A stretch of DNA of 63,936 nt, the filler included, from Kipferlia bialata (Eukaryota), in assembly GCA_003568945.1 (NCBI GenBank). It is 5 parts of 5 records of this genome, joined end to end, with 100 filler letters (N's around TTAATTAATTAA, not from the genome) between each part and the next. Parts side by side here need not be neighbours in the genome. Positions count along the whole stretch, not along the records: positions 41,241 to 48,163 come from BDIP01000232.1; 4 more parts are not named here. One strand, 5' to 3'. A model generated the notes under the pieces. The model did not search any database and had not been told where the DNA came from. It saw nothing but the letters and a program-made list of their open reading frames with translations. The position numbers were made by a program, and so were the translations under genes. Below are positions 15,343 to 56,004 of this stretch, one piece after another; the stretch's first letter is position 1, and each line of letters opens with the position of its first letter.

Positions 15343-15379
<37 letters not shown>

Positions 15380-19808: not shown

Positions 19809-22792
19809 CGGTCTCTTTGGCCCTGTGTGTCAGATACTGCTGAGTGTCAACCCTCAGATGTTTGTGGAGTGGTTCAGCCTGCACCCATTGCTCTGGATTG
19901 CAGTGAGGTGTATTGACCTTGTGTACCTCCATTTCTCTTCATCCCCACTCTTACTTCTAGTCAAGTGTGTATATATTGTTTGTGTCACCCTCACCTTTCC
20001 TGCTTTCTCTGTCTCTCCTCTGTCTCTCTGTCTCTCTCTCTCTCTGTCTTTCTCTCTCTATACCTATTTGCACCATCTCACTCCCAGCGTGGCTGTCTCC
20101 GTGGGCACCCTCACCTACTTCATAGTACTAGTGACAGTGGCAGAGTGGGCCACAAAGGCAACGTACGTATATACACACATAGTATTCTGCTACATATATA
20201 GATAGAGATTAAGGGGGAGAGAGAGAGAATAATGTCAGTCCTGGTCACAGTGGCAGAGTGGGCCACAAAGGCAACGTACGTATACACACATAGTATTCTG
20301 CTACATATATAGATAGAGATTAAGGGAGAGAGAGAGAGAGAAATGACAGTCCTGGTCACAGTGGCAGAGTGGGCCACAAAGGCAACGTGAGTATAGCATG
20401 TTTATATTGTGTATAGTTATAGATAGAGAGAGAGAGAGAAGTGGGCTACCAAGGCAACGTGAGTGTAGTGTATTCATATATATTGAGAGAGTGAGTGTGT
20501 GAGAGAGACTCTGTCTGTGTGTTTGTATGTACTCAGTGCACCTGACCCAGCTACCATGCTGTCTCCTGTCGCTATAGGATACAAGTGACTATTTCTATCA
20601 GTCTGAATATTTACTCATAATATATATGTACCAACTTCTCACCCCAGTTACCAGGCTGTATCGTGTAGGTTCAGATACCCCCAGAGGTTCCTGCTCTATG
20701 CTGGGGTGTACATATTCGTGGAGGTGCTCTATGGGTTCACAATGATGGGTGCGTGTTAGTAGTGTTAACTATACTATTATATATATGGGTGTGTTTACAT
20801 GGAATAGTAATAGTATCGTAAGTATTAATACATATCGTGTGTTCTGACCCCCAGGCACCAACTGCCAGACCGACTCTGACCACCTGTACATATGCCCTGT
20901 CCTAGTTCTAAACGGGTCCGGATTCAGGTATGGGGTATATTACATATATGTAAGGTATAGCATCCTGTTCCATCGTATGTATTATATATTTCCTTCGGAG
21001 TTCCTCTCACAACTTACATGCGTGCTTAGGAATGCGTCTCTCTCTCTCTCTCTCTCTTCCTCCCTCTACCCCCTAGGCGTGATGACCTGGATCAGATGGG
21101 TCTGCGACCATTCCTCAGGGAGGCCACATGCGATGGTATGGGTTGGGCCAATTAATATATATATATGTGTATATAACCAGGATATTTGTATGCATTGGCC
21201 ATTCCTCAGAGAAGCCACGTGTGATGGTATGTATTGTTCTGAAATAGATGCTAACACATCAAGTTCTTCCTCTGCGTATCTCTCCTCTCTTCGCTCCTCT
21301 CATCCCTCAGCCACCCACTGTGCCGAGATATCCCCAGTAGTGCGGTCAGACCTCAAGGTATTGCTATATGTCTGTACATACCTCTATATCTCTCTCTCCT
21401 TTTGTCTCTATATTGTTCCATACCTATGCATTTGTCCTTAGTACGGTCAGACCTCAAGGTAAGGACACACACACACATATATGTATATATACATATATAT
21501 ATACATATATATATATACCTCAAGGTACACTATGTCTGTCTCCCTCTCTTCATATGTATCTCTGTACCCCTCTAGTACGCTCAGACCTCAAGGTGCTATA
21601 TATGACTCTCTCTCTCTCTCTCAGTCTGTCTCTGAGGTTCCTGTATATATATATTCATCTCCACAGCCTCTAACCCCCAGGCCTTCTTCCTGATCCAGTT
21701 CCTTCTCTCTCTCTCTCTCTCTGTCTCTCTGTATCTCTCTCTCCGTCTCTGTCTCTCTCTCTAACCCCCAGGCCTTCTTCCTCATCCAGTTCATAGTGCA
21801 GCCCCTGAACTACCTCATCTACATGCGCTTCATCAGGTATATGTCTCTCTCTCTCTTCATCAGGTGCATGTGTCTATCTCTCTCTCTCTCCCATGTAGTG
21901 TGTGCGACGTGTAGGTACATACTCACCTTAGACTCTGAGCTCATAAACAACCAATGATGTTATGTGTATCCGTTTCTCTTGTATATCTGCTACATACACC
22001 TAACATCAGATACTACCCCGAGCTCATCAAGAACCTGCGGCGCCCTCTCTTTGACAAGAAGGACAAGAAGAAGGATGTGGACGAGAACTCTCCCCTAGGT
22101 AACCATATCATATAGATATATTCCCTGATGCCTCTTTGTCTCTATAATAGTCCTCTTTGTGTCAAGAAGGACAAGAAGAAAGATGTGGACGAGAACTCAC
22201 CTTTAGGTAGGGTGTATAACCTCAGCACGCTGAGTATTCTTACCCATATAACCAGTATACCAATACACCTCTTTGTCTATGTACCTATATAAAGTGTGTC
22301 TCCCTCCTCACCCCCAGTCGTTGTGGCCCCCAAGCAGGCAGAGTATACTCATCCTTGTCCATATATACAATACTGCTATATACCTGTATATCTCTCTCTC
22401 CATCCTCACCTCAGTCGTTGTGGCCCCCAAGCAGGCCGAGTTCGCAGGGCTGGTGGCAGTCAACTTCTGGTGGGTGTTATGGCATCTCTCTCTCTCTCTT
22501 TACCTGATTCCATATAAGTATAATGTAAGTATAGTGTTCACATTGATTGCATTTATGTATATATACCCCAGTTCGCAGGGCTGGTGGCAGTCAACTTCTG
22601 GTGGGTGACGTGTACTCTCTCCCCCTCTCTATATATAAGTTATGTATTGTGTATACTATTTATATTCCCTGACCCCAGGTACTTCTTCCTGTCCAGCGTG
22701 GCCTACCTATGGTGCAACACACTCAATGTGAGTATAGTATAGTATAGTATAGTAATTCTATATTCTAGTATTGTATACATGAGTCATGATGT

Positions 22793-22824
<32 letters not shown>

Positions 22825-23496
22825 TACACCCTTTAACCACAGTTCACTGTCATTGATGACCCTGATGAGTCTGTCATGATGTTCTGTGTCATTGTGATGG
22901 TCACATACCACGTCACACTGCTGGATAACCTGATAGGGATAGAAGGTGAGGAAATATATACACCCACCTTAGTGTATATATATGATTGTCACATATACTA
23001 GTCTGTATCAATGTATTAAGTCAATGCATATAGTCTCCCTCTCCCCCCAGGTGGCACCATGGATGCCCTGAGGGCTAGTAGGGGATATGAATTATATACT
23101 ACTATATATATGATTGTCACATATACTCTTGAGTCTCTCCTCTTATACAAGGTGGCACCATGGATGCCCTGAGGGCTAGTGGGGGATATGTGTTATGTAC
23201 TATATATATATATATATATTTATATATACATATGATATGTGATTGTTCCCTATACTCTATATCCTCCTTCTCACACCAGGTGGTACCATGGATGCCCTGA
23301 GTGCCAGGCCCTCCAACCAGATACTGTCAGACGACATCCCATATAGGTATGTGGATACGTATATATGTATTGACAGATACTGTCAGACGACATACCGTAC
23401 AGGTGGGGGATGGGTATTCGTCTACGCATCCACATGTGTGTATTAATTTCAATTTGGACTAACCCCTAGGTGGAAGGACACCTCTGCCAAGCACTG

Positions 23497-23531
<35 letters not shown>

Positions 23532-24494
23532 ATATATATATATGGCCTCACTCCCAGGTGGAAGGACACCTCAGCCAAGCATGAGCTATTGAGGGTACCC
23601 ATTGAGATGGCACTGCTGCTCACAGGGCCCGTGGTGTTCTTTGGTACCTGTACTCTCTCTTTCTCTCTCTTACAGCTATTCGACTCCACATACATATGGA
23701 TTTCCCTTCCAATACCTATTATTACTGACCCCAGTATGCAACCTAGACTCGATCTCTGCTGAGGACGTGTGTCCATCCCTGGCCCTACTGGTGGCAGAGC
23801 AGTTCTCTATACTGGGGTGAGAGCATATGTGTAGAGATATCATTAATGGGAGTGTACAGTGACACTCTTTGGACCCCATGTCTCTCTCAGTCTATTTCCC
23901 CTCAACCTAACCTATCATGGACTGGACTGTTTCTCTCTCCCCCCCCCCCCACCCTCTCTCTTCTCATCCCAGTCCATCTCTTAGTCTCGAGCGCCTTATG
24001 CTTCTCTCTCTCCCTCCCCCTCCCCCCGTCTTACTCTAGCATGTCCTTTGACCTCGAGTGCCTCATGCTCCTGGGTGCCCTGTGTCTAGTACTGTTTACA
24101 GTGTTCATACTGCTCATGAGGGGACATGTCGCTGTTACCACAATCAAGAAGAGGTTCAGGTATATATAAAGCTTATGTATAGTGTAGAGTAGACCATATA
24201 TATACTCCTCCTGAGGGAACACGTGGCTGTCACAACAATCAAAAAGAGGTTCAGGTGAGTGTATGTGGTGTCCCTCTAGTATCTATCTTCATACCAATAT
24301 TTATGTATACATGTCTCCATACATTGATATGTATTATGTATACAGGTCTCTCTAACTATCTTACCAGTTACCAGTGGTGATACCCCCATGACCCTCTAGT
24401 ATATATACCTCTATATATATTTGCACATAGCTCTCTTGCTCTCTCTCTATACCTGTCTCTCTCCCCCTCACCCCCAGTGGCGACACCCCCATGA

Positions 24495-25470: not shown

Positions 25471-26404
25471 ATGTTCAGCGGTAGTGGAGGTGTTGCACAC
25501 ATAGAGACAGCCAGGCCAGACCTGCCCAATGCAGGCGTGGCCCAGGCCCTGATTCCCCCATTCAACCAGGTATATAGTGCGTTGAGTGTAGGATTATTAT
25601 TAATACTATATTGCCTTCTATTCACTGATTGATATGCTGTGTGGTGCTCTGATTCCACACTTCATGCATGCATATCTGCTATTTGGATGAGTATAGTACT
25701 TCAGCACATATATGCTGCATGGCATGTGCATGAGAGGTCCCTAGTCTGGGAGTGTATACACTATGGTAGGTACCCCCCCCCCCCCACTTTCTTCACTCAC
25801 TCCAGTTCCTTCGTGTCCCCTACAAGGTCCTGGCCATTGAGACCCCCTCCGAGTTCACCTATGCCTCTGGGTCTGGGTCCACAGTGCGTGCATGGAACTG
25901 GCGCAATGGAAAGAGCAGACGCGCCTTCAAGGGACACACTGGTACGATGCTATGGGAGAGGCACTCTGTACTATATTATATCTATACTCGGAAAAGGATG
26001 TTGGTTTCAATATGACTTTGATTTGCCCAGTAGTGTGGCAGAAGGAATTGATTCTGTTACCGGTACCGGTACCGGTACCAAATCCGCTTCACTCTCCTTG
26101 TCTTTTTCATTTCTTCTCCTCTTACCCCAGGACCCGTGACCAGCATTGCCCTGGACTACCCTGCTGGCCTCCTCTACACAGGTAGGAGTGGAGTGTATGT
26201 GTATATATATATGAGAGTATATAGATACTGATACCCCCGCCCTGGACTACCCTGCTGGCCTCCTATACCCTGGTATACGCCCCCTCTATAGTGTACCTTC
26301 TATTGTTGTCAGTATATAGATTACTGATACCAGGCAGCTGGGACCAGCGCATTGGTCACTGATATACCCTCTCAGTATCCATAGTGTCACCATACCTTAT
26401 ATTA

Positions 26405-26440
<36 letters not shown>

Positions 26441-28349
26441 CTGATCCTTAGGCAGCTGGGACCAGCGCATTGGGGTGTGGGACCTCAAGACTGGGGACAA
26501 TGTCAAGTACGTGGCAGAGCACCTCGACTTTGTAAAGGTAGGGCTGGACTCTCTTTCTCTCTCTCTCTGTCCGACTAGCATGGAAGAGAGCATTATGTTT
26601 TCGTCTATCGAGTATAACCCTCTCTATATAGTTGTATTCTTTTATGGACTGCCCCTTGCTCTCATTCCCCCAACCATTTCCCCTCTACCCCCCTGGCATG
26701 TTTCTCTCTTTTCCCGTTTCCCTCTCTTTTCCTCTGTCTCTCTTTCCCACTTACCCTCTCCCTCTCACCCCAGGCCCTTGCTGTGTTCCCTGAGCACAAG
26801 CGCCTGGTGTCTGGAGATGCCAAGGGAGTCATGAAGGTATCATCTGTTGTATTGTAAATATTCCTTATATTGTGTCACATGCACTCTGGTGATGCCAAGG
26901 GAGTGATGAAGGTACTATCATTATTACAGTAGTTGATAATGTGTATATATCTTTATACTACTTGTTGCGTTATATACCCTCTGGTGATGCCAAGGGAGTC
27001 ATGAAGGTACTGCTATTCTCATGTATTTTGTGTATATACTACAGTTGTATTAATGGTGTGAGTCAGTCTCATAAGTGTGTATGGTAAAGAATATCCCCTC
27101 ACTGCTAGGTGTGGGACACTGAGACCATGACTGGTGCAGACCATCAATATATTTGTGTATATCAGTGTTATTATTGTATTTAGTATAGGCTATCCCCTCA
27201 TATATAGGTGTGGGACACTGAGACCATGACTGTGGTGCAGACCATCTACCACCACAGCAGGAGTGTGGACTCTATCATCAGACTGGGGTCATCCGACCTG
27301 TTCTGCTCGGCATCCAGTGACAGGTATATATATACACACATATATATATGTATTTGCACTGATGTGTAGATGAGTAGTGACACTGACACCAGGGCTGTGT
27401 GTGTGTGGAGGCTGGGTGCCGAGGCCCCCGAGGTCTCCCTCCCTGTCTCTGACGACATTGCTAAGAACATGGCAGGTGGGACACATACATTTATAGTACA
27501 CTCTTGCACTAACTCTATACATTTCACGCTTCATCTGTACTTACCCTTCAGGCCACCTTACGGGTGTCCTCGACCTTGTCTATGACGAGGGGACTGGTCT
27601 CCTCTACACTGCATGTGCAGACAGGTTCGTCCGTTGCTGGCGGCTCCCCCAGACGAGTGATGGCCAGGCTGTCATGCAGTGGGTGTCACCACACACACTC
27701 AACACTGGGGTGACAGCTCAGGTAGGCGGACGCTGATACATATGATATACCTATGTTTGTTTATGTATATACTGACGTAACCAGGTTGGCACCAAGTATG
27801 AGGAGGCTGATACCTGTACTGATACGTGCACTGATACCTATGCATATATATATATACTTGTATATGTATATATACTGACATAACCAGGTTGGCACCAAGT
27901 ATGAGGAGGCAGCCCACGACCGCATCCTCCCTGTCCTCTCTGACTGGCCCCTCTCCATCGCTCTCTCTGCCGACAGGGCCCACATGGTGTGTGGCCTGAG
28001 GGACGGGCGTGTGACAGTGCTCGACAACAGTGACGGGTCTGTGGTGGGCAGTGTGAAGCCCCACAAGGACGGCATTGCATCCATAGAGTGTGTGTCCATG
28101 CTGGACTCCGGTGACAAGGACGTGCCCCAGTCGGAGCAGACACCAGTCGAGTGTGTAGTGACCGGCTCCTGGGACTTCTCTCTCAGGAGGCGGAGGCTGG
28201 GTGACCTCCTGGCTGAGATTAAGGGTGTAGACAGGGAGGAGGGGGAGGGAGAGGGCGAGGACTCCTTCGAGGACACGGATGATATGCTGGATGACCCCGA
28301 GGTGGCCGAGATGCAGAGGGAGAGGCTCAGGGCCATGCTCGGAATGTAG
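25471..28349 (+). CDS. WD40-repeat protein
   Basis: Spliced repeats: AFKGHT|GPVTSIALD…LLYT|GSWDQRIGVWDL; RLVSGDAKGVMK|VWD; FCSASSDR|AVCVW; VVTGSWDFSLRR; acidic C-terminal tail. Start codon tentative. Confidence 0.88.
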
Positions 28350-28583: not shown

Positions 28584-30739
28584 ATGTCCCAGGGAGAGAG
28601 TGCCAGTGAGGAGTCGTCCTCCTTCGATGACGAGGACTTCTCGGACATGCCGGGTCTGGAGCAGGTGGACGTGCAGGCACAGAGGCAGGAGATGGCGGCA
28701 GGTATTCATATGATGCATACCCGTATTACTATATATATATATATATATATATATATGTTCAAGCACAGAGGCAGGAGATGGCAGCAGGTAGGCTTGTATA
28801 CCCCACTATGTAGTCATACTCTTATTTCTTTTGTGTATACATAGGTACAGGCACAGAGGCAGGAGATGGCGGCAGGTACACTGTGTATGTAATGTATATA
28901 GGTATATCCAGGCTTGTATATACAGGGGGGTGCAGGCACAGAGGCAGGAGATGGCAGCAGGTAGAGTGCACTATATCCATGTGTGGTAGAGTATACCCAG
29001 TATATATATATAGCGGCGTGCAGGGCAGAGGCAGGAGATGGCAGCAGGTACCCGGCATACTAACATACACACATATGATGCACTCTAAATGCATGGTTTA
29101 GCATGATCTTACCCCCAGAGCTAGCCATTGACTTCCGTGACCTCCCCATGGGCACCCTGGAGGATGGTGCTGAGCCTGACTATGCCCATGCCGCTGAGCT
29201 CAAGAGTAGGGCACTGGAGGAGGCCAGGGAGGGACACCTTAGGTATGAGCAGTGTATATATACTATCATATAGTGTACTCTCTATCAAGAGTAGGGCACT
29301 GGAGGAGGCCAGGGAGGGACATCTGAAGTATATCGTAGTATATACTATATAGTACACACTCTCTCTATCAAGAGTAGGGCACTGGAGGAGGCCAGGGAGG
29401 GGCACCTCAGGTAGGGCGGTGTAATGGTATCATATATATTCTCTCTATCAAGAGTAGGGCACCTCAGGTAGGGCGGTGTAATGGTTTCATATGTATTCTC
29501 TCCGCATCACTGGTGTCTCACCTACCGGTATCTATTCACCTCAGGAAGGCCGTCCTCCTTGCCTCCGATTATCTAGTATAGTATATTACAGTAGTATATT
29601 CTACATTCATAATCAATTCACCTTAGGAAGGCTGTCCTCCTTGCCTCCGATGCAGTCCAGGCCCACCCTGGGAGTGGGCTGATGCTGGTGTGCAGGGCAC
29701 GCATCCTCATCGACCTGGGGGAGATATCAGCCGCAAAGAGGGACCTCAAGGTATCCCAGACACACACTCTCTCTCTCTCCCCCTCCCTCTACACAATCCT
29801 TTACTTATCTCTCTCACTCCAGCTGGCTGTTAAGCGCTCTCCCAACAGTGCCAGTGCATACCACTGCCTAGGTACATCAGTGCTAGTATATATATATATA
29901 TATATATATGAACTGCCATAGGTTCACTGATGAATAATGTATCAATACGCCGATACTTACAGTGTCTGTCTAACTCTTCAGGTGACGCCTGCAGTCTGTA
30001 TATGTGACAATGTTATTATATATGAGAAATTGTGCTCTCTATTGTATTCGATCCATCTACTTATGGTAGTACTTATCCCTAAGGCGACGCCTGCCGTCTG
30101 CTGTGTGACAGTGAGGCAGCAGTATCATAGTATATAGTGCATATTTGATTATTGATGGTACATTGATATACACCATATCTTTCTCTCATCTTCAGGCGAT
30201 GCCTGCCGTCTGCTGTGTGACAGTGAGGGTGCTGTCAAGGCATACCGCACTGGGCTTGACCTGGAGTACAGGGCAGAGAGTGCTAGACACCTCACGGTCA
30301 TGGAGAAGGATGTTAAGGTATAGGGATATACCACCCATAGCATATGTATATATATATACCACTATGATAGTATCTGTTTATATATATATATATATATATA
30401 TCACTGTGGTAGTATCTGACTGTCATGGAGAAGGACGTCAAGGTATAGGGATATACCTCCCATAGCATATGTATATATATATACAGCTATGCATATTTAT
30501 GTATAGCTGTTGTTTTCCCTGTAATGGTACTGATGTCCTGGGCTAGGAGCAGGCCAGTCAGTATTCTCTCTCTCTCTCTATATATCATTATACACTGATG
30601 CCCTAGGAGCAGGCCAGACGGGACAGGGCAGTCAGTGTCATATATTGTACACACTACTATTTGCATACTTCTATATATATATATATCAGTTGATACTGAT
30701 GCTTTAGGAGCAGACAAGACGGGACAGGGCAGTCAGTAT

Positions 30740-30778
<39 letters not shown>

Positions 30779-30941
30779 CAGTTGACCCTTATCCCTAGGA
30801 GCAGGCCAGACGTGACAGGGCAGTCCGGGAGAAGGTCAAGGTCGACATCAAGCCTGGGAAGCCGTCATCTGCCATACCTGGGGTGCACCCAGCCGCACAG
30901 GGGTTCAAGCCTCCTGCTGGCATGGCCAACCGTACGTTAGA

Positions 30942-30983
<42 letters not shown>

Positions 30984-31286
30984 TTCCCTCTATATATATG
31001 CTATCTTACCCCAGCCTTTGAGGTGCTTGCTGACGAGGCTGCCAACCTCTCGCCCCAGATGGCTGAGAGGCTCATGGGGGACAACAAGGTGGCATCCCTC
31101 TTCAACGACCCAGACTTTGCGGCAAAGGTATGTTCATAGTATTCATTACCCGGCTTAAGGTGTGATATCTACCCCCAGCTTGCCGAGGCCTCCAATGGTC
31201 CAGAGGGTGCTGCCAAGTTTGCCAATGACCCCGAGTTTTTGAAGAACATTGCGGCATTCATGGGTGTCATGGGGCAAAAGAAGTGA
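28584..31286 (+). CDS. Hsc70-interacting protein (HIP/ST13)-like TPR plus STI1/DP co-chaperone
   Basis: TPR helices (KAVLLASDAVQAHPGSGLMLVCRARILIDLG…RSPNSASAYHCLGDACRLL) and C-terminal DP motifs (LFNDPDFAAK…KFANDPEF); stop 31284-31286. Confidence 0.78.
28671..29050 (+). repeat. Five regularly spaced exon-end/donor repeats with dissimilar spacers
   Basis: CAGAGGCAGGAGATGGC(A/G)GCAG|GTA with GT at 28702, 28788, 28876, 28961, 29048. Confidence 0.95.
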
Positions 31287-32659: not shown

Positions 32660-32967
32660 TTCAGGCAACACCCATCCCTTCAAAGATGTCAGGGGTGAGC
32701 ACCGCCCCAGCCTCACTCAGCATCTCGAGGTCGAGGGTCATATCACACCAGTCCTTCCCGTCATGTGCGTCAGGGCTGGGATGTAAGAATCAGTCGGTAA
32801 TCTACCATGACGCATAACAATACCATATATTCGAGTGTCATATCACACCAGTCCTTCCCGTCATGTGCGTCAGGGCTAGAATCAGATGTAAGAATCAGCC
32901 ATGATATACTAACAACATGACGCATAACTCCAAAGCAATGATAGTTAACTATTATCCAAGCTTCTGA

Positions 32968-33022
<55 letters not shown>

Positions 33023-36000
33023 TGAAGAAGAGAGGAGGAGAGAGCAATGGAGAGAGACGTAAAAATACTACTTCTCACACAGAGCCAGGCATATGTGTGC
33101 ACTGAAAAATATACATAGAGAGAGAAAGAGAAAATGTATAGAGAAGGAGGAAAATTGAGGGGAAGGGGGAGAGAGTATATACACCCTTACCTCTCACACA
33201 GAGCCAGACACGTGTCTGCACTAATATCCTGCACTAATATGTATATATGGAGAGAGAGAGAAAATGTATAGAGAGAGAGAGAGAGGTTTACCTCTCACAC
33301 AGAGCCAGACACGTGTCTGCACTGAGTTGCACTGCCTTGTGGACATGGAAGTCAGTGTCGGCAAGGTGGAGGAACCTCTCTGAGGTAAGTGTTGAGAATG
33401 CCTATGTATTACTTCGGTGATAGAGAAAGAGACTGTCCACAAGGTGTAGGAACATCTCTGACGTTAATACCGACACAACCCAAAGGTTAGTACCCATACT
33501 GCGCAAACGACTACAAAACAGTCTCCTGGCAAATACTATAAATACTATACATGGCATGAATACCTGTCTCTGCGTCGATGCAACCAATCCCAAGTGTAGT
33601 ATTGTCTGCAGTGTATCCGAGGAAGAGAGCGTAGCGGCGCTTGGGACCCACATTGACATATGCAGTGTGTGAGAAGGCGGGTGGTAGACCCCACTCAGCA
33701 CTCCACCTCCACTCTCTCTCTCTCTCTCCCTCTCCACCCTTTACATCGGTGTAGGAGAGAGTGTAAGTGGGTGTACCAGGTGCACTGTAGATGTACACCA
33801 GTGAGTCTCCAAGGATGATGGGGTCACTTCTGGTGGCATCCTCTAAACCTTAGGATCAGATATCACACACGAACAAATATACCTATCCTACATGAAGATT
33901 CATTCATGGAGAGAGAGATTGAGGAAGAGGGGACACAAAGAGAGATGTACACAACCATAGTACTACAAATAGTATTTTGAGGGAATATATGTATGAGGTG
34001 TTACCTTGAGGCCTTGGGTGCATCTGACAGTCTGGTCATATACATATGCATATATATATATATATACATATGCATATATATGAATATAATACATATCTTA
34101 CATATATATAATTGGTGAATACGTATTATTCACCTTGGAGCCTTGGGGGTACCTCTGGCAGTTTGGTCCCACCCATATATATATATTCATATATAATACT
34201 ATATATGTGCAATGTAGGTATGTGTATGTACTGTGCATATACAATGTGATAATATACCTTGAGGTCTAGGGGTTGCCTCTGGCAGTCTGGTCCTATCTAT
34301 CTCTCTATATATATATACTATTGCTATGTGATTATCTAATATAGATATTATAGTATACCTTCAGGCCTTGGAGGTGCCTCTGGCAGTCTGGTCCACTGCT
34401 CAGTCTGGGTGTCAGAGAGAGAGGGAGAGAGAGAGAGAGAGAAAGACCAGCCAACTCTTGTGCACTCCAACTGCCTCATTCACTGTAATCAGAGAGGGGA
34501 AGGGGGGAAATACACCAAAACAAATACACCTACACTGTTGACGGTGTACCTTTGTGTCGAACTCCCACACCCCAGCTGCCTCATCGGCACATGTCCGGAG
34601 GATCTTGCCCTAGGGTCAGGGAGAGATTTACACATGTATACTCTGGTGTATGAGTAATCATAGAGTATGGATAGGAGTATACAGAGAGAGCTAGTTGGCC
34701 GTACCTTCAGACCATGCAGCCTCACCCCCTTGGCAGCCTTTGGACCTGTCTTTGGCCTGCATGGCTTCCAAAGGCCTAATGGATAAGTAGTTTACAAGTA
34801 CAGAACGGCAAACTAGCATAAACAGCTGATACTGATACTGATACTGATACTTCAGAGAGAGATCTATATACCTGAGTGTGGGTGGAACACCTCAAAGTGG
34901 TGGCTGGTGCCTCTTCTGCGGAAGTAGACGCCACTCCTAAGGGTCACACCCCTGGGTGAGAAAGATACTGCATTCCTAATATATATATATATATATATAC
35001 ATATACAATAGGTAAGAAGGGTGTATCAAGGAGCGGTGGAGAATAAAGTGCACTGGATGAGAAGAGTACATAGAGCGCTAGATGAGACAGAGAGAGAGAC
35101 ACGCAGAGAGAGAAAGAGAGAGAGGGAGACTCACCCGGGGACAGCTGCGTTGTTGAACTGTCTCAAGAAGCACATCTTCCAACATAGCTAAGTCACAAGG
35201 TATATATATATATATACATATATGCAAATATGTAACTAACTCACCCTGGTACAGCTTCGTTGTTGAACTGTCTCTTGCCAGGGACAAGTTTGTATTCACT
35301 CTTGCCTGGAATCAGTGTTGATATTAATATATACATTAATTAATATGATATGGCATACACACTCTTGTTCACTCTTGCCTGGAATCAGTTCTGATACATT
35401 GTAGACTTACTATATACACATGTGTATATATATATGTGTGTGTATATAGATTCTTCGGCTTGTCAGATACCATTGCTGACATGTGAAATAGCATATATAT
35501 ATGTAGCATACTCACTCTGGGTCCCCTTGTTCCCCTTCATTGGCTTGTCAGTCACTAGTAGCTTCTGGAGGCCATTAACTACCACAGTACCGGAGGAGGT
35601 ACTCTTGGCAATGTCATCTGACATAAGAGAGAGAGAGAAAGAGATAGATTGAGAGAGAGAGAGAGAGAGGGAGAGAGTGACATCAGGGTCTGAGGAGGTA
35701 CTCTTGGCAATGTCATCTATAGTAAGAGGGGAGGTAGAGTGAGAGCAGTAGATTGATAGAGAGAGAGAGACAGAGAGAGATACCACAGTGCCTGAGGGGG
35801 TACCCTTAGCTATGTCATCTGACATTAGAGGGGGGAGGGAGAGAGATATGTGCAAACCGATGTAGTTCAGAGAGAGAGAGAGAAAGAGAAAGAGAGTACC
35901 TGTGTGGTCCAGGCCAAGTACAGTATAATATTGATGAATAATAGGCTTCAATGTTCCTACATCTATATATTTGACACCTAACCTGTGTGGTCCAGGCCAA

Positions 36001-36348
36001 GTGAGTGCAGGTACCTGAGAGGTGAGTGGGAGTATAGGGCAGAGAGAAAGAGGGGCATTAGGCCGGAGACAAGACATATAGTATGTGGAGTCGTGAAAGA
36101 GAGTACACGAAGACGTGGGAAAGATGTCAAGTGGGAAAGGGGAAGGGGAGATCAGGCTATCTGACGTACATGAATCCCTTGGTGGACCCCCCAAAGTCAG
36201 AGAGGGATACTCTCTCTCTCTCTATATATATATATCAAATAGGTTGTAAATAAATATATATATATATATATGTATTCACTCTCTGACGTACATGAATCCC
36301 CTTGTGGACCCCCCAAAGTCAGAGAGGGAGAGGGTGCGGGGCATGGTC
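32660..36348 (-). CDS. Multi-exon hypothetical protein (beta-propeller/Kelch-like C-terminal part), 5' end in gap
   Basis: Exons such as GVWEFDTK|TEQWTRLPEAPP, LGIGCIDAET|ERFLHLAD…ALCES|PDAHDGKDWCDMTLD…GMGVA*. Confidence 0.6.
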
Positions 36349-41284: not shown

Positions 41285-41495
41285 ACTGAGGATGTGGATT
41301 CAGTAAATTCACTCCAGTGTGAGAGAGAGTGCGTGTGTATAGACAATCACTGGGAGATAGCTAGGCAGTATATATAGTATGTACATAATATACACATACA
41401 TACTCACATGATTGAGTTCCTCAGCTTCATCATCTCATGTAGTATCCCACATACCATATGCATACATATACATATATATATACTGGTATACTCAC

Positions 41496-42462
41496 ATGAT
41501 TGAGTTCCTCAGCTTCATCATCTCGTGGGGGGTCAGGGCACCCCGGGTGTACTTGGAGGGGTGCCTACAGTGAGATAGGTATCTATATATATATATATAG
41601 GTATATATATAGGGAGGGAGAAAATGGGTGAGAGAGAGAGAATGGGGAGACCCCGGGTGTACTTGGAGGGATGCCAAAAGTAAGACAAATGTGTTACTAT
41701 ATATATAAGGGGGAGAGACAGAGATATAATGGAGGGTCAGAACACTAACAATATATATATATGTCTGGTGATGTACCTTGGCAGCCACAGCAGAATGTCC
41801 CATAGATATACAAGTATATGTTCAACATATGTAAATATAACCACATAGACTATTAGAGAGACATTCATATTCATCATACCTTGGCAGCCACAGCAGTATG
41901 TCTCCTGGTATATATACACATACATATGAAGCATATCAATACATATACATGTATATACATACGATAGAGGTGTATAGATATTCATACCTTGGCAGCCACA
42001 GCAGCATGTCGCTTGTTATACCAAATACAAAAGGTACTATATAAGGTACTCTATAGACATACTATAATAATATATCGACATATACATATATATACATATA
42101 TGTATGTACCTTGGCAGCCACAGCAGCATGTCTCCTCTGCGCCGCACATTGGTCTGGGGGTGAGAAGATGACAGAATATATAGTGTATATAGTATATATA
42201 TATATATAAGATAACACAGTATATAGAGTATACATAGTGTCTCCTCTGCGCCTCACATTGGTCTGGGGGTGAGATACTCATGGGAAGATAACGGTGAGAT
42301 AGTATGAAATAATGGGAATAGATGGGAAGCCGGTGCAGGGGGAGGGGAGGGAGGGTAATACAAAACTCATATACACACATATATTCCCACCTGGTGGAAT
42401 GTCCTGATGGATGGGAATGCCGTCCTCAGCTCATTCACAACCTGCTTGTAGTCCTTGCCGTT
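41496..42462 (-). CDS. Internal exons of a hypothetical protein, possibly Myb/SANT-like
   Basis: NGKDYKQVVNELRTAFPSIRTFHQ|TNVRRRGDMLLWLPR|HPSKYTRGALTPHEMMKLRNSI; only loose resemblance to a Myb repeat start. Confidence 0.45.
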
Positions 42463-42705
42463 CTAGAGTTAGATATATGTATACATATATATACACATAT
42501 ACTATACTATACTGAGAGGGAGAGAGAGACAGGGAGAGAGAGACCACCTGCGTTTAGTCCTTGCCATTCTAGAGTTAGAGAGAGATAGTAAGAGTCATAT
42601 CTACCTAGATAGATATAGATAGATATACAGAGAGAGAGAGAGACAGAGAGAGGATAGTGAGAGGGAGAGAGCTGTAACTGAGGGGGGGCCAACGGGTTGG
42701 GGAAA

Positions 42706-42744
<39 letters not shown>

Positions 42745-42812
42745 TCATGGACACTGGAACCTACTAATACATTTGTATATGTGCTAGTACACTGCATGGA
42801 TAGTGTCCGTAC

Positions 42813-42974: not shown

Positions 42975-43382
42975 CTTTGAAGGTCTAACTGAAGAGAGAG
43001 AGAGGGCATGAGTCATGCCGCATGACATGGCACTGATTTCTGTTTTTGTTCTTAGAAATCTACACCCCTTTTCAACCGTTGATTAGACCTGTCATACGTC
43101 AAGCTTCTCTTTAAGCCTGTGTGTCTATGCGTCTGGAGGCTACCTTTGAGTGTGCGGGGCATATACTGAAGTCTGGGTGGGAGGGCTTCCTCACCTATGT
43201 GCTGACTGACATCCTCCACTTGCCAGCTGAGCACCCAAAGCAGGTGCCCTCACTCACTCTCTATCTCTCTATCTGTCTTTTGCATATATAAATGAAGTGG
43301 TTATCCTCCATATCTTAGCAGAGCGCACCAGTATGGTTCTCCCCCTCTCCCCACTCCCACCCCTCTCTCTCTCTCTCTTTCT

Positions 43383-46300
43383 ATGGTACACCTAGCCAGA
43401 GTGTTGTACAGTGTCCCGGGTGAAGACCCCCTCCCAACCACCCATTCCGTCTGTTCGAGTGTAATTATGTATAGTCTTCTCTTCTGATCACACTATGACC
43501 TGCGATACATAAAGCCCTTTTGTGGTCGTACCTCCCAGCGTATTGTGTCACTATACTCTCTCTCACTCCCTCTCTCTCTCTCTCATACCAGATCGACACT
43601 GTCAAGCGTCTTCTGGAGTACAACGTAGCTATATATGTATATATTGCATATAAGTATATAGACGTATACCTGTATGTTCTCTCTATTGCCAGGTCGACAC
43701 TGTCAAGCATCTTCTGGAGCTCTCTCTCTCTCTCTCTCTCTCCCTCCCCCTCTCTCTCTCTCTAACCTCTAGATTGACACTGTCAAGCACCTCCTCGAGT
43801 ACAACGTGCCAGGGGGCAAGGGGTTCAGGGCACTCCTCTCCATATACTCCTTCCTGTGCTATGTGGATGGGTGCGTAGTGTTCACTCTACATATCAATTC
43901 ATTGTACATTTGTATGTTTTATGTTCCCTTATACTCCTTCCTGTGCCATGTGGATGGGTAAGTCGGCCTATTACATACAATACTGTCTTAAAGCATGTAT
44001 ATTGTGTATTCATAGGTAGGTAATCTTGCTTTGCACATATATATTCTCTTATGATTGTGTCTTCCTCGTCGTTAATGTATTATTGTTATATTATTTGGTA
44101 ATTTGATATGCTCTGGAGGCACTCGTCGATATCTAGTCATATGGTCTCACCCCCTCTCACCCCCTAGCCTTGTGGAGGGTGGTCTCGAGGGGTTCTCCAG
44201 GCACTTCCCGGTGGACGAGGTACTACACTTATATGTATGTATATATATATATATAGATACACACCCATATATTCAATATATATATTATCTACTATGAGTG
44301 AGGACGAGGTAACACATGTTTGACTCTCAAGATTCCTATGCATATGTTTATTCTGGTCACTAGTCTCTGTTCTTCTTCTTCCCCCATGTCTCTTGAGAAA
44401 CACACACACATATATATTTATATATACCTTCACCCCAGACCATAGCCGACCTGTCCCGCCTTGGCTGGATGCACGAGACACTCCAGAGTGCATTCCTCGT
44501 GATAGACGATGTGCTCGACAATGCAGGTATATTATACTTTGATATTTATTATATATATATATTATTATATACTAGTATAGTATTATTATACTGTCAATAT
44601 ACGAATCTATATTGTTATTGAGAGAATGCCCTTGTATTTATTCATGTTCCCTTTATTAGCACTTTGTTAGTATAACAATTGAGAGACTATGCCCTTCTCA
44701 CTTCCAGGCACCCGTCGCAGCAAGCCCTCCTGGCATGTCATGAAGGTATTCTTACACCTGTCTCATTTCTTTGTTCCAGGGTCTCTCTCTATAATTCCAT
44801 TCTTTTGTGACATGTAGACTCAATCATCCCTCACCCCCAGGGCCCAGGCCGTGCTGGCTTCGATGGGTTCATCCTCAAGGGCGTTTCGTCCCAGGTACCT
44901 GGAGTATTTAATAGTATATCTCTTGTGTTGTTTTCTTTCACATATATATATATGCGTCTCCTTCCTCACCCCCAGGTTGCCTCTGACCTTGAGAGGAGGT
45001 GCAGTGCTACTGGACTCCTGCAGGTATGAGAGACCCATGCGAACGACAGGACATGTATAGTATACCCTCTTATGTATAGTATTTCGTATATTTAGACCTT
45101 GAGAGGAGGTGCAGCTGGACTGCTACAGATGAGGCAACACTATATATTATTGGTATATAGTTCTATGTAATTGATTACTCACCCCCAGGTCCTTGAGCAC
45201 GTGTGCATGCGTACATGCATGGGAGAGCTAGACGACACAGACCTCGCAGTCACAGGTATACATATGTATAATACTTGACGAAGTAAATAGTGATACCTCA
45301 TGTCATCAGGCTCCACCCTTGATGAGCTCCGCACTGCCTGCCCCCCCACCCTCATATATGTTATACTATACTATATGTGTTACTATATTCTAAATGTACC
45401 AATAACTGCATATTGTGTTAATTACTCACATACTACCCTTAGGTACTACCCTTGACGAGCTCCGCACTGCCTGCCCCCCCACCCTTGTTGACTCCATCCA
45501 CTACAACAAGACAGCCCTGTACACAGTGTGGTTCCCAATCCTCAGTGGTGTGCTTGTCGCACAGGTAGATATGCATATAAATGAACAGTGTCAACTCTCA
45601 TCATAGCGCTGTATATATGCTTTCTACTGACGTAGCGGTATCGTGAGACTTGCCCCACTAGTAGATATATCTCTCTTTCTCTCTCCTTGACATGCTGAGC
45701 TCTTTCCCCACCTCCCCCCCCCCCCCTCCACCTTCTCGCAATATATATGTATATATATATATCATAATGAACACTACTAACTACAGGGCATGCTGAGCTC
45801 TGTCCCCCACCTCACCCCCCGCACCCAGCACACCAAGTCTGTCTCCATGGACACATCCAGCCCTGTCGGTGGGGCACCTCTGCCTGAGAGGGTGCTCTGT
45901 GATGAGGAGACGACACCCAGGTAGGGTATATATCTACATATCATGATGTGTCAATGTGAATCATGTAGCATTCTATATTGATATTGTAAGATGAATATGA
46001 TGATTGCTAGACCCTAACCCCAGGCAGCTAGAGTCTCTCAACCTGTCCCAGGTCTGCATTGAGATTGGGCACTACTTCCAGATCCAGGATGACTATCTCG
46101 ATGTGTTTGGGGACAAGGTACGGCATATCTATCTGTATGTGGCATTAGATAGTTCCGTAGCTACACGTATATAACTGTATATGGTTGGTAACCCTCAGGC
46201 CGTGATGGGCAAGGACGGGTATGACATCAGCGTGTACACTGTGTCTATACAGTGTGTATATAACATATATATTAATTTGCATATATACTCTGTCTCTTAT

Positions 46301-47663
46301 GTACCAGGCCGTGATGGGCATGGACGGGTGTGACATCAGTATGTATATACATATATATATATGTATATACTATATATATACTATATATATATGTATGTAG
46401 TATCTATTCTAACCCTCAGGCCGTGATGGGCAAGGACGGGTGTGACATCAGAGAGGGCAAGGTGTCGTGGTGCCTGTCCACTATGCTGCATGGGTGCGAG
46501 GGGTACGAGGCCCAGGAGCTGACAGGTATAGTTGAATATATATATATATATATTTATATATATAGTATAGTATATATATATACATATATGCATAGTGGTG
46601 CCTGTCCACTATGCTGCACGGGTGCGAGGGGTACGAGGCCCAAGAACTGACAGGTATAGATGCATGTATATATGCATATAGTATATATATATACATATAT
46701 GCATAGTGGTGCCTGTCCACTATGCTGCATGGGTGCGAGGGGTACGAGGCCCAAGAACTGACAGGTATACAGACACATATTTTTACTATATAATGTATTT
46801 ATGCTGATCTCTCACCCCAGACGCCGAGGTGTCTCTCTTTGCCTCCACCTATGGCAGGGGGCCTCCCCCTATATTATGTATATATATATGTATTGTATTT
46901 CTATGTATATACCTCTCACCCCAGACACCGAGGTATCACTCTTTGCCTCCACCTATGGCAGGGGGTCCAGTCCAGCCAAGGAGGACGTGGACGCAGTGAG
47001 GAAGGTATGTTACTTGAATGTGCAAGAGAATAAGGTAGCATGTATATATGTATTGCAGGGGAAGGTCAAGGAGGACGTGGACGCAGTCAGAAAGGTATAT
47101 AAGTAGAATGTCATTTATACACTATACATGAGTATGTATTTGTTTTGCAGGGTCCGGCCAAGGAGGACGTGGACGCAGTGAGGAAGGTAAGAAATAGTGT
47201 ATCCACCTCTTGTCAGGTTATCAGGTTATGACTTAGGAGAATCTCTGAGTGTATGTGGACCATTAGTTTGTATATACCACTTTCCCCCCCTCTCTTATTG
47301 TATATATGTACACTGACTCTAGGTCATGACTGACAGAGGCATCCCAGAGGTCTATGCACAAGTGAGCAAGAGGTGAGACAACCGTATAGCTACATTGTCT
47401 TGTGATCAGTTACCCTTTATGTACAGTTTCATTTGCAGTCTGACTTATATAATACAAGGTACCAGCGTGACACATCCGCCGCTGTGCATGCCCTGTTCCC
47501 TGCCTTATATGTATACTGTATTTATATACTATATGTGCATACTGCCTATAAATTGACTTCTAGGTACCAGAAGGACATTGCAGCTGCTGTGCTTGCCCTC
47601 CATCCTGCCCTCCAGCCACCCCTGACACTCTTCCTCAGAAAGCTGGAGGGGAGGAAGATGTGA
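43383..47663 (+). CDS. FPPS-type trans-prenyl diphosphate synthase (start codon uncertain)
   Basis: LLEYNVPGGKGFR; FARM QSAFLVIDDVLDNA|GTRRSKPSW; YNKTALYT; SARM IGHYFQIQDDYLDVFGD; GKDGCDIREGKVSW; basic C-terminus EGRKM*. Confidence 0.92.
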
Positions 47664-48207
47664 TATACATCATTGTATTGTATACAAAGTGTCTCTTCAG
47701 CCCCTTCCCCTGACACTCTTCCTGAGGAAGCTGGAGGGGAGGAAGATGTAGATGTAGATGGTAGTAATAGACGTGAATGATAGATGAGTCAATGCAATGT
47801 TTTAGGGCTTTGTTGCAACCTCTGGAACTATTTATAAATAACAGAAGGAGAAAGGAGTTGCGACAGTCGCCCCTGCTACAGGCAGTAGAGTATTCCTCGG
47901 GGAGTAAAGGGGAATGTGTCAGAAGTACAATTGGGTATAGTATCAACGATGAATTGTCACTGTGACGAGATATTTAGTGGAACTGGCCCTCTATGAGCAC
48001 CATAGGACCCCAATGAAAGTCTGAACTATCTCCTTAAGGTTAGAAGGCAGAGAGGAACGAGACTGGCAGAGAGGGGAATGAATGAGTGAGTATACATATG
48101 GGGTATATGGGGAGTGAGAGAGGGGGGGGGGGGGGGGGGGGGGAGGGGGGGACAGCCCCCCGGNNNNNNNNNNNNNNNNNNNNNNNNNNNNNNNNNNNNN
48201 NNNNNNN

Positions 48208-50777: not shown

Positions 50778-52147
50778 GCCTAGAAGGGCATAAGAGAATA
50801 TAGCCAATGATGTATGTGTTCAAAGATCAACTAGTGTGCTGGTCTAGTACCATATATCCAAAGTATCCCTTGCTCTCCAAGAGAGCTTCTTCTTACCGTG
50901 ATGAATCATGCTATATTCTGATAGTATTGGTCTCAAACAGCTAGATATCCAATTGCCAACTCGTATCTTAGCAACCTTCCGGGGCACGCGAAAAGTATTC
51001 TCTTCATAAATACGATACTACCAATATAGTGACTCTGGAACTCAGCAACCCCGAGCTCTATTACATCACAATGAAATGGAACAGCAACAAAGTAATGTCT
51101 CGCACGCGTAGGTTAAACTACCTCGAGTGCCCTTGAGAGAATGTAGCATGTATTCAGTCCAATGATTTGGTGTGGTAGTACTCTATGATAGCGTAGATAT
51201 ACAGACTAAGGCCCTTAGTCTAAGGGTCATGTATGTTCACAGTGTATCTCGCAAGGTATCGGTCGCCGTAGCAGCTATCTCCTACACCACCCACTCAGCA
51301 CCCCTGGCGACCCGCCCATGGTGGGCGGCCCACCCCATACATGAGCAGCATACCAAGCGTCGTCGACCTCGAGGTGTAGGCTGTAGCGTACCGAGTGAGA
51401 GTTTCTCGTCTTCTGCATGAACTTGGAGTCCAAGTCTTGGACTGAAAATTTCAGTGAAGTGTCACAGACAGGTCAGAAGGAAAGGTGAATGTGACGTGTT
51501 GCTCCCACTCTTCTTGTTCTTGACAACTGATTGAGGCCCCTGTGTCACAATATCACAAATATGCTTTCTGTTGATGTATGTAAGAGGCACCTGGGTGGAA
51601 GATGTCTTCAGACCCTTTCCTTGCTCAAATATGTACTTGACGCTGAGGAGAGCGATGTCATCTAGCTTAGATGCTGTCTCAACTAGGACTCCAACCAACT
51701 GTTCAATTAACCTGAGGGTTGTTGGCTTATAGTGGCCTCTCTTGCGATTCAGATGAGCCTGGGAAAATGGGAGATTACCGTAGTGTAAAAGTTGCCGAGG
51801 TTGGATTGGACTTCGATTGTGAATAGGGGAATAGGGGAGATCAGTGAAGAGGGGTATTCCACTTCAACATTAGTGGACACAGGGTGGGAGTGGGGGCAGA
51901 GTGACTTGCCAGTTCTGAGTCCCTTGATGGTATCGCGGCAAAAGTTGAAGAGGGCGTTCTACTCAGCGGTTCAACTCAGTCATGAGTTTCTAACTGACTA
52001 TACGAACCTGATAGCAACACAATGCTACAAATACAACCAAAACATGGAAATCTATATTTAACCTGAAGGAACAAGGAGAGAAGAAGTACACCAATGAACG
52101 CAAGAGGAGGCTTCCAGTTGTCTTATGACATATGTCTGTGTCACCTA

Positions 52148-54839
52148 TCAGGCCCTTGCAGTCTTCTTGTGCTTCTTGTACCTGTAATGAGCATTGGATC
52201 CAACTATCAGAACAAAGAGAGCCCACTAGAGCCAAGGGCCGTCACCTCTGTAGAAGCTCTGGGTTGGTCCTGGGGTTGGCCCTGCACCCCCGGCCCTCGG
52301 TATAGTGGGTCAGGGCATCCTCGCCGTCCTGGGGTTGGTTAAGGGTGTCAGACCGTCGAGAGAGATGCTGATTGAACAGTTGAACAAAGAACACTGGGAG
52401 GGACAGAGCACGATCCGCACTCACCTTGAGCAGTTCGTTGCACAGGGGGCACATGACCTGAATATCTGTGAGGACCACGGTACAGTTGCTGGGGTGAGAG
52501 GTAAAGAGGAGCAACGTCCACAATGTGTGTATGACCCCACCTGACGTGGTCCTGCACCAGGATGTCGGGTATCATCTGGCGGCACTTGGGGCAGAGGTCA
52601 AAGTGCACAGGGGTGTTGGGGTCCTGGTTGGCGGCGCACTCAGCCACCATGTGCTCTGGGAGACAGGGGGTCTCCACCACTCTGGGGTCAGGTGTCTTAA
52701 CACTCCCACACATTGAGAGCAGAAAGAGCAGAAAGAGAGTAGAAACACAGTGGCTGAGGTACCTTTCACAGGCCGGACAGCAGCACAGACAGGGACAGTC
52801 CACAAGCAGGTGTCTACGGAGGTCGGACTCGTCCTTCGACTGGGGTCAGGGGAAGACTACTCGGTACACAACAGCATCACATCAAGCTGTCACAAGACTG
52901 GGTATGAATGGCATGACGAACTGACTCACCTGGTACAGGCAGAAGTGACACATGCCGACAGGGAATCCCCCCTCCTCCTCCCCGTCGTTCATGACGTCAG
53001 GCTCAGGCCTGGCCTCAGGATGGGCGGGCTGGGGCTTAGCGACCTAAGGGTGAGACCTATGGAACAGAGAGGACAATGGAACCACACCCATCTTCACCAA
53101 CACAATGACACCTAGACCAGCAGACAACCTGTGATAGACAGCCAGTGATAGACAGAGAGTGATAGACAGCCAGTGATAGAAACGCACCATCTGCCTGGGG
53201 GGCTGGGTCATGCTGGGGACAGCGGGCTGTGGGGTGGGGGGTAGCACACCAAGGGGACCGCCTCCTTGTGCCTAGGGGTGAATGCAGTTAAGAAAGGGAA
53301 AGAGAGACAGAGAATGACAAGCAACAACTCTGAGAGGTTTCAAGACATGATACAACTGGAAGAATGCGAACACTTGTACAATAATTACTATGCAAGAAGA
53401 AAATTACATAGCCGTACCGCCTTAAGGGCAGCTCTCCTCTGCCTAGCTAGCTCCTTGAGCTCTCTCTTCTTCTGCTGACAGGTCAGATGACATTGACATT
53501 GAGACAGTGGAATAGTCAGACTGGCCCATACCTCAGCCCTCAGCCTGTGCTCCTCTGCGATCTGCAGCTTGTCCTCCTCTGACAGGGCAAAGGCCGCCAT
53601 GCCTGGCATGAGGGGAAGGGGGTAGGTGGAAAGAGGGGGTAGGTGGTCGGGGTGATGAGAGAAGGGGGTGGGTGTTTGTGCATACCTGTGGGCTTGATGG
53701 GCCTGCTGTCCCCCATCTGCATCTCTTCCTGGCAGTCAGGGTGGGGCAGAGACTAAGTTGTATCATAATAGTACGGCACATGTGTCACAAGAACCCACCT
53801 GAGTGATGGGCTGGCCAAAGGGGTTCAGCCCACCATCGCTCACAATAGGAGGAGGGGGCACGACCTTGGGTGGGGCTGGGGTGACCATAGAGGGACCGGG
53901 GCCTGGGGTTAGTGAAGGCATGGGGGCAATGGGAAACATACGTGTATAGACGTATTGATCAACAGGAGAGACCATACCTCCCACGCTGCCTGGGTCCTGT
54001 GGGAGGGGGGCATACCCCGCCCCACCCTGACCAGGGGACATGGGGAGAGAGGCAACCTGGGGGTCAACAGCGCTGAACACAGGTACACTTGGGAGAAACA
54101 TGAACAACGGTTATCATGTACAATACCTCGTTTGCCTGGGGAGCGGGCATGGCAGGAGCTACGGGCTGGGATCAGAGGAGTAACGGAGAGGGGGCACACA
54201 GTATGGAGAGACAATGACCCCATACCTGCACCACTGGCTTTGGCTTGGGGGGCATGACAGTGGCCATCTCAGGGGCTGGGGGTTAGAAGGATAGCGAGAC
54301 CTGCATAGACGGGTAGAGATGGCGGGACTGACTGACCGAGTGTGTGGAGCAGGGTCTCGTCGTCCATGTCGAGGATGGTCTGGATCTCCTTGATCTCCAA
54401 GTTCATGTCATGGGCAGCACGGTACATCTCAGCCTGACATCAGTACTCAACACAACCACGAGTGACTCGGAGTCGTCTACAAAATACAGGTGTCTATCCC
54501 ATGACCAGACAACCCACAGAGATGTGCATACCTGAGCTGCCTTCCTCTTTCTGATCTCCAGCTCCTCCAAGGTGTCTGTCAGGGCCTAGGTGAGACTATG
54601 CTGCGCAAAGACAGATACTGATACACAAAAACCGTCTTCAAAGAACAACACTTCCTCCCACACAGTATATATCGTCACTGTCACACATACAGTATATGAA
54701 GAATAAGGATATTCATATACACCATACCCTCAGGTTTGTGACTGCGGCCTTGTAGATATCAGCCTTGAGATACTCTTCATTCTCGGCTGCCTCCGTCTTC
54801 TTAATATTCAGGGTCACAATCATCTCCTCAGCACGGCCT
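52148..54839 (-). CDS. CEP104-like ciliary protein (coiled coils plus C-terminal zinc-finger array), 5' partial
   Basis: RHLLVDCPCLCCCPACE|VVETPCLPEHMVAEC…CPKC…DHV…CPLC…GEDALTHYTEGRGCRANPR follows the CEP104 zinc-finger spacing; upstream LNIKKTEAAENEEYLKADIYK and LEIRKRKAAQAEMYRAAH resemble its coiled coils. Confidence 0.72.
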
Positions 54840-54960
54840 CTGGGGTGAGGATGATGATGCAGCAGACAACTGATGAAGTGGGGGGGGGGGGGGGGGCCTC
54901 TTCTATATAAAACACANNNNNNNNNNNNNNNNNNNNNNNNNNNNNNNNNNNNNNNNNNNN

Positions 54961-54972: not shown

Positions 54973-55474
54973 NNNNNNNNNNNNNNNNNNNNNNNNNNNN
55001 NNNNNNNNNNNNNNNNTTCTCTGAGGATACATGGCTCATCTCACCGCTCCAATTGCCCTTTCCAGACATTTTTCGTGCTCTTCCACAGCATAGAGAGCTG
55101 TTGTGCGCTAATTCGTATGGCCCTACACCCCTATGGGAGGAGCAGTGATCAAAAAAGTTCAATGTATATGTTCCAGTGGAACAGTTCCACGTAGTGCCTC
55201 AACACCGCAAACCTCATATGTGGACCAACCTGCCTGTATCACAGAGGCAACAGATGCAATGACAGATACTACAGTATTGAAACACAAATACTGATATATT
55301 CCTCTTAGCGAGTAATCAGGTCATGCACGAGCATACCAGAACCTAAACGAAATGACAGGAGAGTAATGAATAATGTTATGGCAGCCAGCAAGTAGCCACC
55401 ATCAACACCTGCCCCTCTCAGAGGCAACACAACATAATAGCAACATAGAGGTGGGTAACCACACCTCAAAAGCG

Positions 55475-55863
55475 CTACTTGCCAAAGACAACTGGAGCAG
55501 GCATGGCACACCTTGGGTGAGCTGGAGAATGACACAAACAGGAACACAAAAGCTTCAACAAGGACTGAGGCCTCACCTAACGTCCTTGAATAGGTCATCG
55601 TTTGATGCGTTGATCATGAGGTCCCCGACAATGGCAACATCGTCGCCCTTCACAACCATAGTCTCACACTCAACATACTGGTGTGAGAGGTCCAATCATT
55701 GCATTACATCAACATACAACAGTGGTGGTGGTGGGGGGGGATACCAACTGAGGCGTGTCCATATGAGAACAATACCTGTGGTCCCTCATGCTTGGACAGA
55801 ATAACCTCCTGACACTCGGACAGTACCAGGTTTGTGTTTTGGTCGAAAGTGGAGAGCTTTCCC
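55475..55863 (-). CDS. LSM8: Sm-like protein LSm8, 5' partial
   Basis: GKLSTFDQNTNLVLSECQEVILSKHEGPQ|YVECETMVVKGDDVAIVGDL…R|CAMPAPVVFGK* (Sm1/Sm2 motifs with Lsm8-type tail). Confidence 0.72.

Positions 55864-55959: not shown

Positions 55960-56004
<45 letters not shown>

Follow-up and report, generated by a model that had tools for sequence, protein, structure and literature searches.

Exon ends of Kipferlia bialata genes recur beside splice junctions and after a stop codon, with mostly synonymous differences

The window, the whole stretch of 63,936 nucleotides that was analyzed, consists of Kipferlia bialata genome segments with N linkers between them, and it holds a gene that is of the farnesyl diphosphate synthase (FPPS) type, as judged from its domain, motifs and best solved matches. 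Its exon chain translates exactly into the deposited K. bialata protein P0001, named polyprenyl synthetase. The product matches Pfam PF00348 (E 2e-41), has the two DDxxD motifs of a polyprenyl synthetase domain (DDVLD and DDYLD), and finds its best structural-sequence matches among solved FPPS chains (E 4e-28). Its C-terminus, LTLFLRKLEGRKM, lines up with the chain ends of solved synthases (...KSFLAKIHKR), and the first TGA therefore closes the working protein. One exon, at 45787-45920 (plus strand), encodes about 45 low-complexity residues that separate the synthase domain into its two halves. In this gene and in the others listed in Table 1, the ends of exons recur as partial copies, here called echoes.

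Table 1. Echo-bearing genes of the window and the features around the last exon of the FPPS-type gene (syn, synonymous; non-syn, non-synonymous differences).
Feature	Position	Strand	Description
Membrane-protein-like gene A	19809..24159	+	Partial; 15 exons in one open frame; named from a reading of its translation; 15 echoes, 37 syn / 8 non-syn
WD40-like gene B	25471..28349	+	Weak WD40 matches; 6 echoes, 5 syn / 1 non-syn
TPR/STI1-domain gene C	28584..31286	+	Model identical to deposited K. bialata P0002; 12 echoes (four in one intron), 20 syn / 2 non-syn
Kelch-type gene D	32661..36347	-	Model equals deposited K. bialata P0006 but for one donor, which the deposit places 12 nt earlier; 12 echoes, 17 syn / 18 non-syn, weakest bias
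Gene G	41408..42568	-	Partial; 7 echoes, 5 syn / 4 non-syn
Farnesyl-diphosphate-synthase-type gene	43127..47663	+	15 exons, 415 aa, 15 of 67 echoes
Dense echo arrays around FPPS exons 12-13	46199..47186	+	Local repeat scan and exon-flank alignment; in order, two acceptor echoes, two donor echoes, one acceptor echo, two donor echoes
Diverged upstream echo of last-exon start	47459..47494	+	Acceptor plus 36 nt; 3 syn, 6 non-syn; score 27, near threshold
Working last exon ending in TGA	47564..47663	+	Acceptor with branch motif, score 5.5
AT-rich filler after working stop	47664..47694	+	24% G+C; not clearly homologous to the sequence behind the echo
AG proposed as alternative acceptor	47699..47700	+	Without branch motif; echo read out of frame
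Post-stop echo	47707..47751	+	Spans 14 codons and TAG, with two silent changes; may reach weakly back to about 47695

The last 45 nt of the FPPS-type gene (47619-47663, CCC CTG ACA CTC TTC CTC AGA AAG CTG GAG GGG AGG AAG ATG TGA) reappear beyond the stop codon at an offset of 88 nt, as the first-pass annotation of this DNA had claimed. The copy has a local score of 76. When the 450 nt downstream were shuffled 2000 times the score never exceeded 26, and 2649 comparisons of exons with foreign introns reached no more than 29. An 18-nt pattern from the repeat matched two places in the sequence and none in 100 shuffles, and the longest exact repeat in the pair is 22 nt. The two substitutions in the copy, CTC/CTG (47636/47724) and AGA/AGG (47639/47727), are both silent. 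The first-pass annotation saw coding selection in this, a claim that the focal copy alone cannot make because chance would leave both changes silent with P = 0.07-0.17; as a class, the echoes do bear a coding signature, from the counts given below. Its "synonymous" stop is weak evidence, as the best alignment places one inserted A (ATGT-GAT / ATGTAGAT) running into a GATGTA repeat, not a two-base swap. The copy may start about 12 nt earlier, judging from CTT CAG CCC and then an extra CTT codon, against CTC CAG CCA. The flank score of the post-stop filler is -6, the 14th percentile of the null.

A copy behind a stop codon matters in that it sets the DNA event apart from splicing. GTGATA at 47660 scores -1.4, compared with 1.6 for the weakest of the 54 modelled donors, which upholds the earlier view of the echo as a DNA-level feature that needs no donor. 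The AG noted at 47699-47700 is present, likely as a copy of the exon's own CAG codon. Its proposed use for an alternative last exon is not supported. Its score is -0.7, where real acceptors have a median of 11.6, a 10th percentile of 6.2 and a minimum of -2.2, and it cannot account for in-frame conservation because the echo would be read out of frame, as ...SKSPFP and a stop. The AG at 47688-47689 also puts the echo out of frame, and a cryptic intron at 47660-47700 would have a weak donor and a product ending in ...GRKIPFP. Upstream of the last exon (47459-47563, plus strand), use of the echo acceptor would add 105 stop-free bases in frame; its score is low, at 0.4. Two 36-nt in-frame donor echoes on the plus strand, at 47059-47094 and 47151-47186, each follow a TTGCAG and have no branch motif; going by their sequence, they are possible as rare cassette exons.

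A blind scan of the window returned 94 local repeat pairs, nearly all at splice junctions. Genes were modelled where these pairs cluster, and thus chosen after the repeats had been seen (62 exons, 54 introns), and every modelled exon was aligned to its own flanks with a threshold near the 99.9th percentile of the 2649 foreign-intron comparisons. One internal match in gene A (score 26), probably due to chance, was left out of every count, so that 67 of the 68 matches above threshold are counted as echoes, in six genes and 30 of the 54 introns. The polarity is strict: 67 of the 68 matches consist of an exon end with its donor lying downstream, or an acceptor with its exon start lying upstream. 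There are 40 exon ends downstream and 27 exon starts upstream, with donor-type echoes before acceptor-type ones in all 11 introns that have both. Echoes are 15-59 nt long (median 31), fillers 27-108 nt and whole units 56-134 nt; a constant unit length was rejected, since echo and filler lengths correlate at only rho -0.31. The 30 echo-bearing introns span 165-545 nt, and the 24 others 51-236 nt.

The splice site next to the exon is usually kept in the copy. GT persists in 34 of 37 donor echoes (35 after one donor was corrected) and AG in 25 of 27 acceptor echoes, and echo donors score 8.0 compared with 8.7 for real donors. At the inner edge, an acceptor-like site was found in 0 of 40 donor echoes and a donor-like site in 0 of 27 acceptor echoes. 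An in-register GT/AG pair occurs in 6 of the 67 echoes, none with the branch motif; that motif, YTNAY, lies 6-10 nt from the intron end in 51 of the 54 modelled introns, with no long pyrimidine tract between. The deposited models of P0001, P0002 and P0006, which are predictions and not transcripts, use the outermost sites and skip all echoes. Splicing and translation likely ignore the echoes. The search that the first-pass annotation proposed for echoes after stops and before start codons, carried out on the window's modelled genes, found one at 1 of 4 stops and at 0 of 4 starts. A 16-nt direct repeat at 28537-28576 (plus strand), just before the ATG of gene C, is non-coding and is not a coding echo.

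Echoes are not spread evenly over the window. On the acceptor side, the only side compared, automatically called acceptor-like sites have echoes at 0 of 74 in the window's other genes, compared with 19 of 60; one echo at 38544, found in the blind scan, was missed by the automatic acceptor pattern. Introns of echo-free genes are less A+T- and TA-rich than echo-rich introns, in which TATA/ATAT reaches 0.128 compared with 0.037. Breaks at microsatellites lying right at the junction were considered and rejected, as dinucleotide repeats are not enriched at junctions (0.47 vs 0.49, P = 0.5). Genes at 1-18700, 52100-54900 and 55400-63936 are long and G+C-rich, have simple, short introns and lack echoes, and there are echo-free genes even on a segment shared with an echo-rich gene (19.7-24.5 kb). 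Runs of GGTACC repeats lie in introns of unrelated genes (about 26058-26079, 56040-56052, 56203-56216). Long G or C runs occur at 42706-42749, at segment ends, at gaps and inside gene G, and are likely places where the assembly breaks.

The differences between echoes and exons look like those between coding sequences. There are 113 synonymous and 48 non-synonymous differences, one of the latter a nonsense change (in gene G), giving a pN/pS of 0.13-0.17, and codon positions 1, 2 and 3 hold 23, 20 and 118 differences. The synonymous share exceeds the 41% to be expected if one copy were dead and the exon beside it still worked (P = 4e-14, or about 1e-9 with one echo per exon side). Simulations of the whole pipeline gave 0.26 or 0.40-0.41 synonymous, with a maximum of 0.53 in 360 replicates, while 0.71-0.72 was observed with one donor corrected and inner edges trimmed. 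Differences from the exon common to all echoes of an array are synonymous in 15 cases and non-synonymous in 2, and those private to one echo are synonymous in 20 of 40 (26% expected, P = 8e-4). The echoes therefore carry functional-type variation plus neutral decay. That decay also acts follows from the non-synonymous half of the private differences and from the weak bias of genes D (17/18) and G (5/4). In the silent changes, decay toward the A+T-rich introns is slight (45 vs 36; P = 0.03 against a mixed model), and the amino acid changes are mildly conservative (P = 0.02). Judged by these substitution patterns, most of the differences must have arisen while each copy was functional as coding sequence.

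In a plain tandem duplicate the intron side should match too. The 35 nt beyond the splice signal have a mean score of 10.9 of 70, compared with 3.3 for a null of other exons in the same gene and 36 for a simulated divergence of 20%. The intron-side flanks are often at null level even where the exon parts are identical, and the flank score is at least 30 in only 7 of 67 echoes. By this measure there is faint common descent of the flanks, far older than that of the exon parts. Near-perfect units of 111-113 nt at 20170-20395 and 46566-46769 (the latter a 111-nt tandem pair in the FPPS-type gene) are, by their near identity, traces of unequal exchange or slippage in the recent past. A nearly identical flank at 30297-30491 adjoins an exon part with four silent differences, a mismatch that points to mosaics made by exchange. 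Four-gamete inspection of five echo arrays was uninformative. A mobile intron or a transposon with target-site duplication finds no support, as 35-nt flanks from different exons average only 3-5 of 70 and form no sequence family.

Both copies must once have been coding, yet only one can be read at any moment, as none of the 67 echoes offers an in-register swap site that has the branch motif. The simplest source of the second copy is another allele. We lean modestly toward an origin of the echoes in recombinational repair that used a diverged allele as template, was interrupted, and was finished by end joining at coding/non-coding borders, with splicing ignoring the resulting half-exons. Past alleles would have differed by about 20% at silent sites and far more in introns and 3′ flanks, and hence only coding DNA could have paired. 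A break near a coding/non-coding border would pair through the exon, and new synthesis would then cross the border. The non-homologous end so made could not re-anneal and would pass to alternative end joining, leaving an exon end, 27-108 nt of filler and a second exon end of 15-59 nt. The survivors would be the products with an intact reading frame, which would fix the polarity and permit a copy after a stop codon, the case in which the border is itself a stop. Unequal exchange between exon end and echo would add or remove units, and the half-exons would stay silent if splicing works exon by exon, joining in a pair the acceptor and donor that lie closest on its two sides. The imported piece may be either the echo or the working exon end.

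We know of no case in which aborted SDSA plus end joining is a standing genome feature tied to exon borders. In Drosophila, aborted SDSA is finished by ligase-4-independent end joining (PMC8951532). Templated synthesis from a homologous copy followed by alternative end joining is, by analogy, the step that would have operated in Kipferlia. The Drosophila case as described comes from a gap-repair reporter whose template was identical and whose tracts ran to kilobases (PMC8951532), whereas the Kipferlia case is a genome feature at exon borders. The gene models of K. bialata are reported to include four Dmc1, five Rad52, PolQ and XPF, with no Rad51A-D, and NHEJ is described as lacking in metamonads (PMC8516963). 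Dmc1 is reported to stabilize mismatched joints (PMC6719624). The first-pass annotation had raised allele import, which we infer to be the best reading here; the protein collection did not yield the second allele, as P0001, P0002 and P0006 each form a cluster of one and every exon search gave a single protein (of 3, 17 and 124 candidates). A metagenome scan with P0001 found two distant synthases among 164 candidates, at 26-27% identity, and no donor allele. To our knowledge, the sexuality of the Kipferlia lineage is unproven. Interrupted repair does not predict the narrow unit size (56-134 nt) or the lack of echoes in other genes.

An unlikely alternative is that the echoes arose on the same chromosome and are kept by selection as sacrificial repair handles, breaks in the filler being repaired by annealing the exon end to the echo. 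Annealing would bring the echo into the reading frame, which would explain the silent-site bias without a second allele. The echoes, at a median of 31 nt, come close to the shortest length on which single-strand annealing works, and hybrid units show exchange between exon end and echo. Five Rad52 models in a lineage that lacks NHEJ also fit (PMC8516963). However, we estimate that collapse frequent enough to purge amino acid changes would erase the echoes well before 20% silent divergence had built up. It would also come before fillers could become unalignable, yet up to four unrelated fillers persist in one intron.

That the echoes are used in RNA, as alternative last exons, cassette exons or swapped exon ends, and are selected as coding sequence, is improbable. 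The kept GT and AG, the near-normal donor scores and the two 36-nt echoes at 47059-47186, which would be in-frame cassettes, are what such use would predict. Against it stand the absence of inner-edge sites (0 of 40 and 0 of 27), the few in-register pairs, none of them with a branch motif, the out-of-frame reading from both AGs before the post-stop echo, and the deposited models (predictions), which skip every echo. Still more doubtful are plain junction-spanning tandem duplications on one chromosome followed by neutral decay. These would have the same polarity, a few units are near-identical including their intron parts, and the echo-rich introns are rich in microsatellites; but they predict 26-41% synonymous differences where 70-72% are observed, a prediction already contradicted in the window, and they predict matching flanks beside identical exon parts, where mostly null-level flanks are seen. 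The least credible alternative is an assembly artefact that strung diverged haplotypes head to tail, for although the echoes resemble alleles and the published draft is a short-read SPAdes assembly (PMC5874029), two haplotypes should form bubbles and not a path from mid-intron back to mid-exon, the exact repeats (median 21 nt, maximum 48, focal 22, 0 of 67 reaching 55) let the units fit inside a read, and the echoes begin mid-exon with graded decay.

Tandem exon duplications and mutually exclusive exons give intronic exon-like copies with silent-site conservation, as whole exons with both splice sites. The Kipferlia echoes differ from these as half-exons with one splice site. Intron gain by tandem duplication involves an AGGT site in the duplicated stretch; the echoes show the GT/AG pair in register in 6 of 67 cases, and with the branch motif in none. 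The likeness to intron gain by tandem genomic duplication lies in the short tandem duplication of coding DNA beside splice signals (PMC3265369). There a new intron is created (PMC3265369), whereas in Kipferlia existing introns grow. The closest geometry is in intron 7 of human F7 (IVS7), where a 37-bp minisatellite spans the exon-intron border (PMC1557585). As in the echoes, copies of the exon end and its donor extend into the intron; in F7 the later pseudo-donors, though intact, stay silent while splicing takes the first donor (PMC1557585), and the deposited gene predictions suggest the like for Kipferlia. Later units keep the splice site in Kipferlia too, but the units are not alike over their whole length, as the flank scores indicate. 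F7 IVS7 is described as one locus of like repeats, while more than half of the modelled Kipferlia introns (30 of 54) are involved, mostly with unrelated fillers; Kipferlia also has acceptor-side and post-stop copies, and differences that are mostly synonymous.

The geometry is thus already known in kind, and the coding-type divergence and the scale are new. We found no report of such echoes in Kipferlia in the literature, where supplements and subscription journals could hold a mention. The text of PMC5874029, supplements aside, makes no mention of duplication, heterozygosity or ploidy, and that of PMC6679479, likewise without its supplements, none of tandem copies or duplication. Dense echoes are apparently unreported so far, and on the sequence a mechanism of repair from another allele is likely. 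Read mapping, variant calling and gene prediction can all go wrong at echoes.

If repair from another allele is the true origin, echoes supply thousands of natural tests of splice-site choice, in which intact and nearer sites are skipped in genes with short introns; K. bialata is reported to retain only 87 of 174 spliceosomal proteins (PMC6679479). A broader picture, held tentatively and with more doubt than the mechanism itself, is that Kipferlia, recombining with Dmc1 only and without NHEJ, has assembled introns and gene ends at thousands of exon borders by stacking pieces taken from other alleles. The introns would then be an archive of allele exchange, echoes would repeatedly return to the reading frame, and a strongly reduced spliceosome would ignore near-perfect inner sites by exon definition. 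If interrupted repair holds, there is a route of intron growth tied to the loss of Rad51 and NHEJ, and one genome would reveal the silent diversity of a whole population as well as evidence that a free-living fornicate outcrosses.
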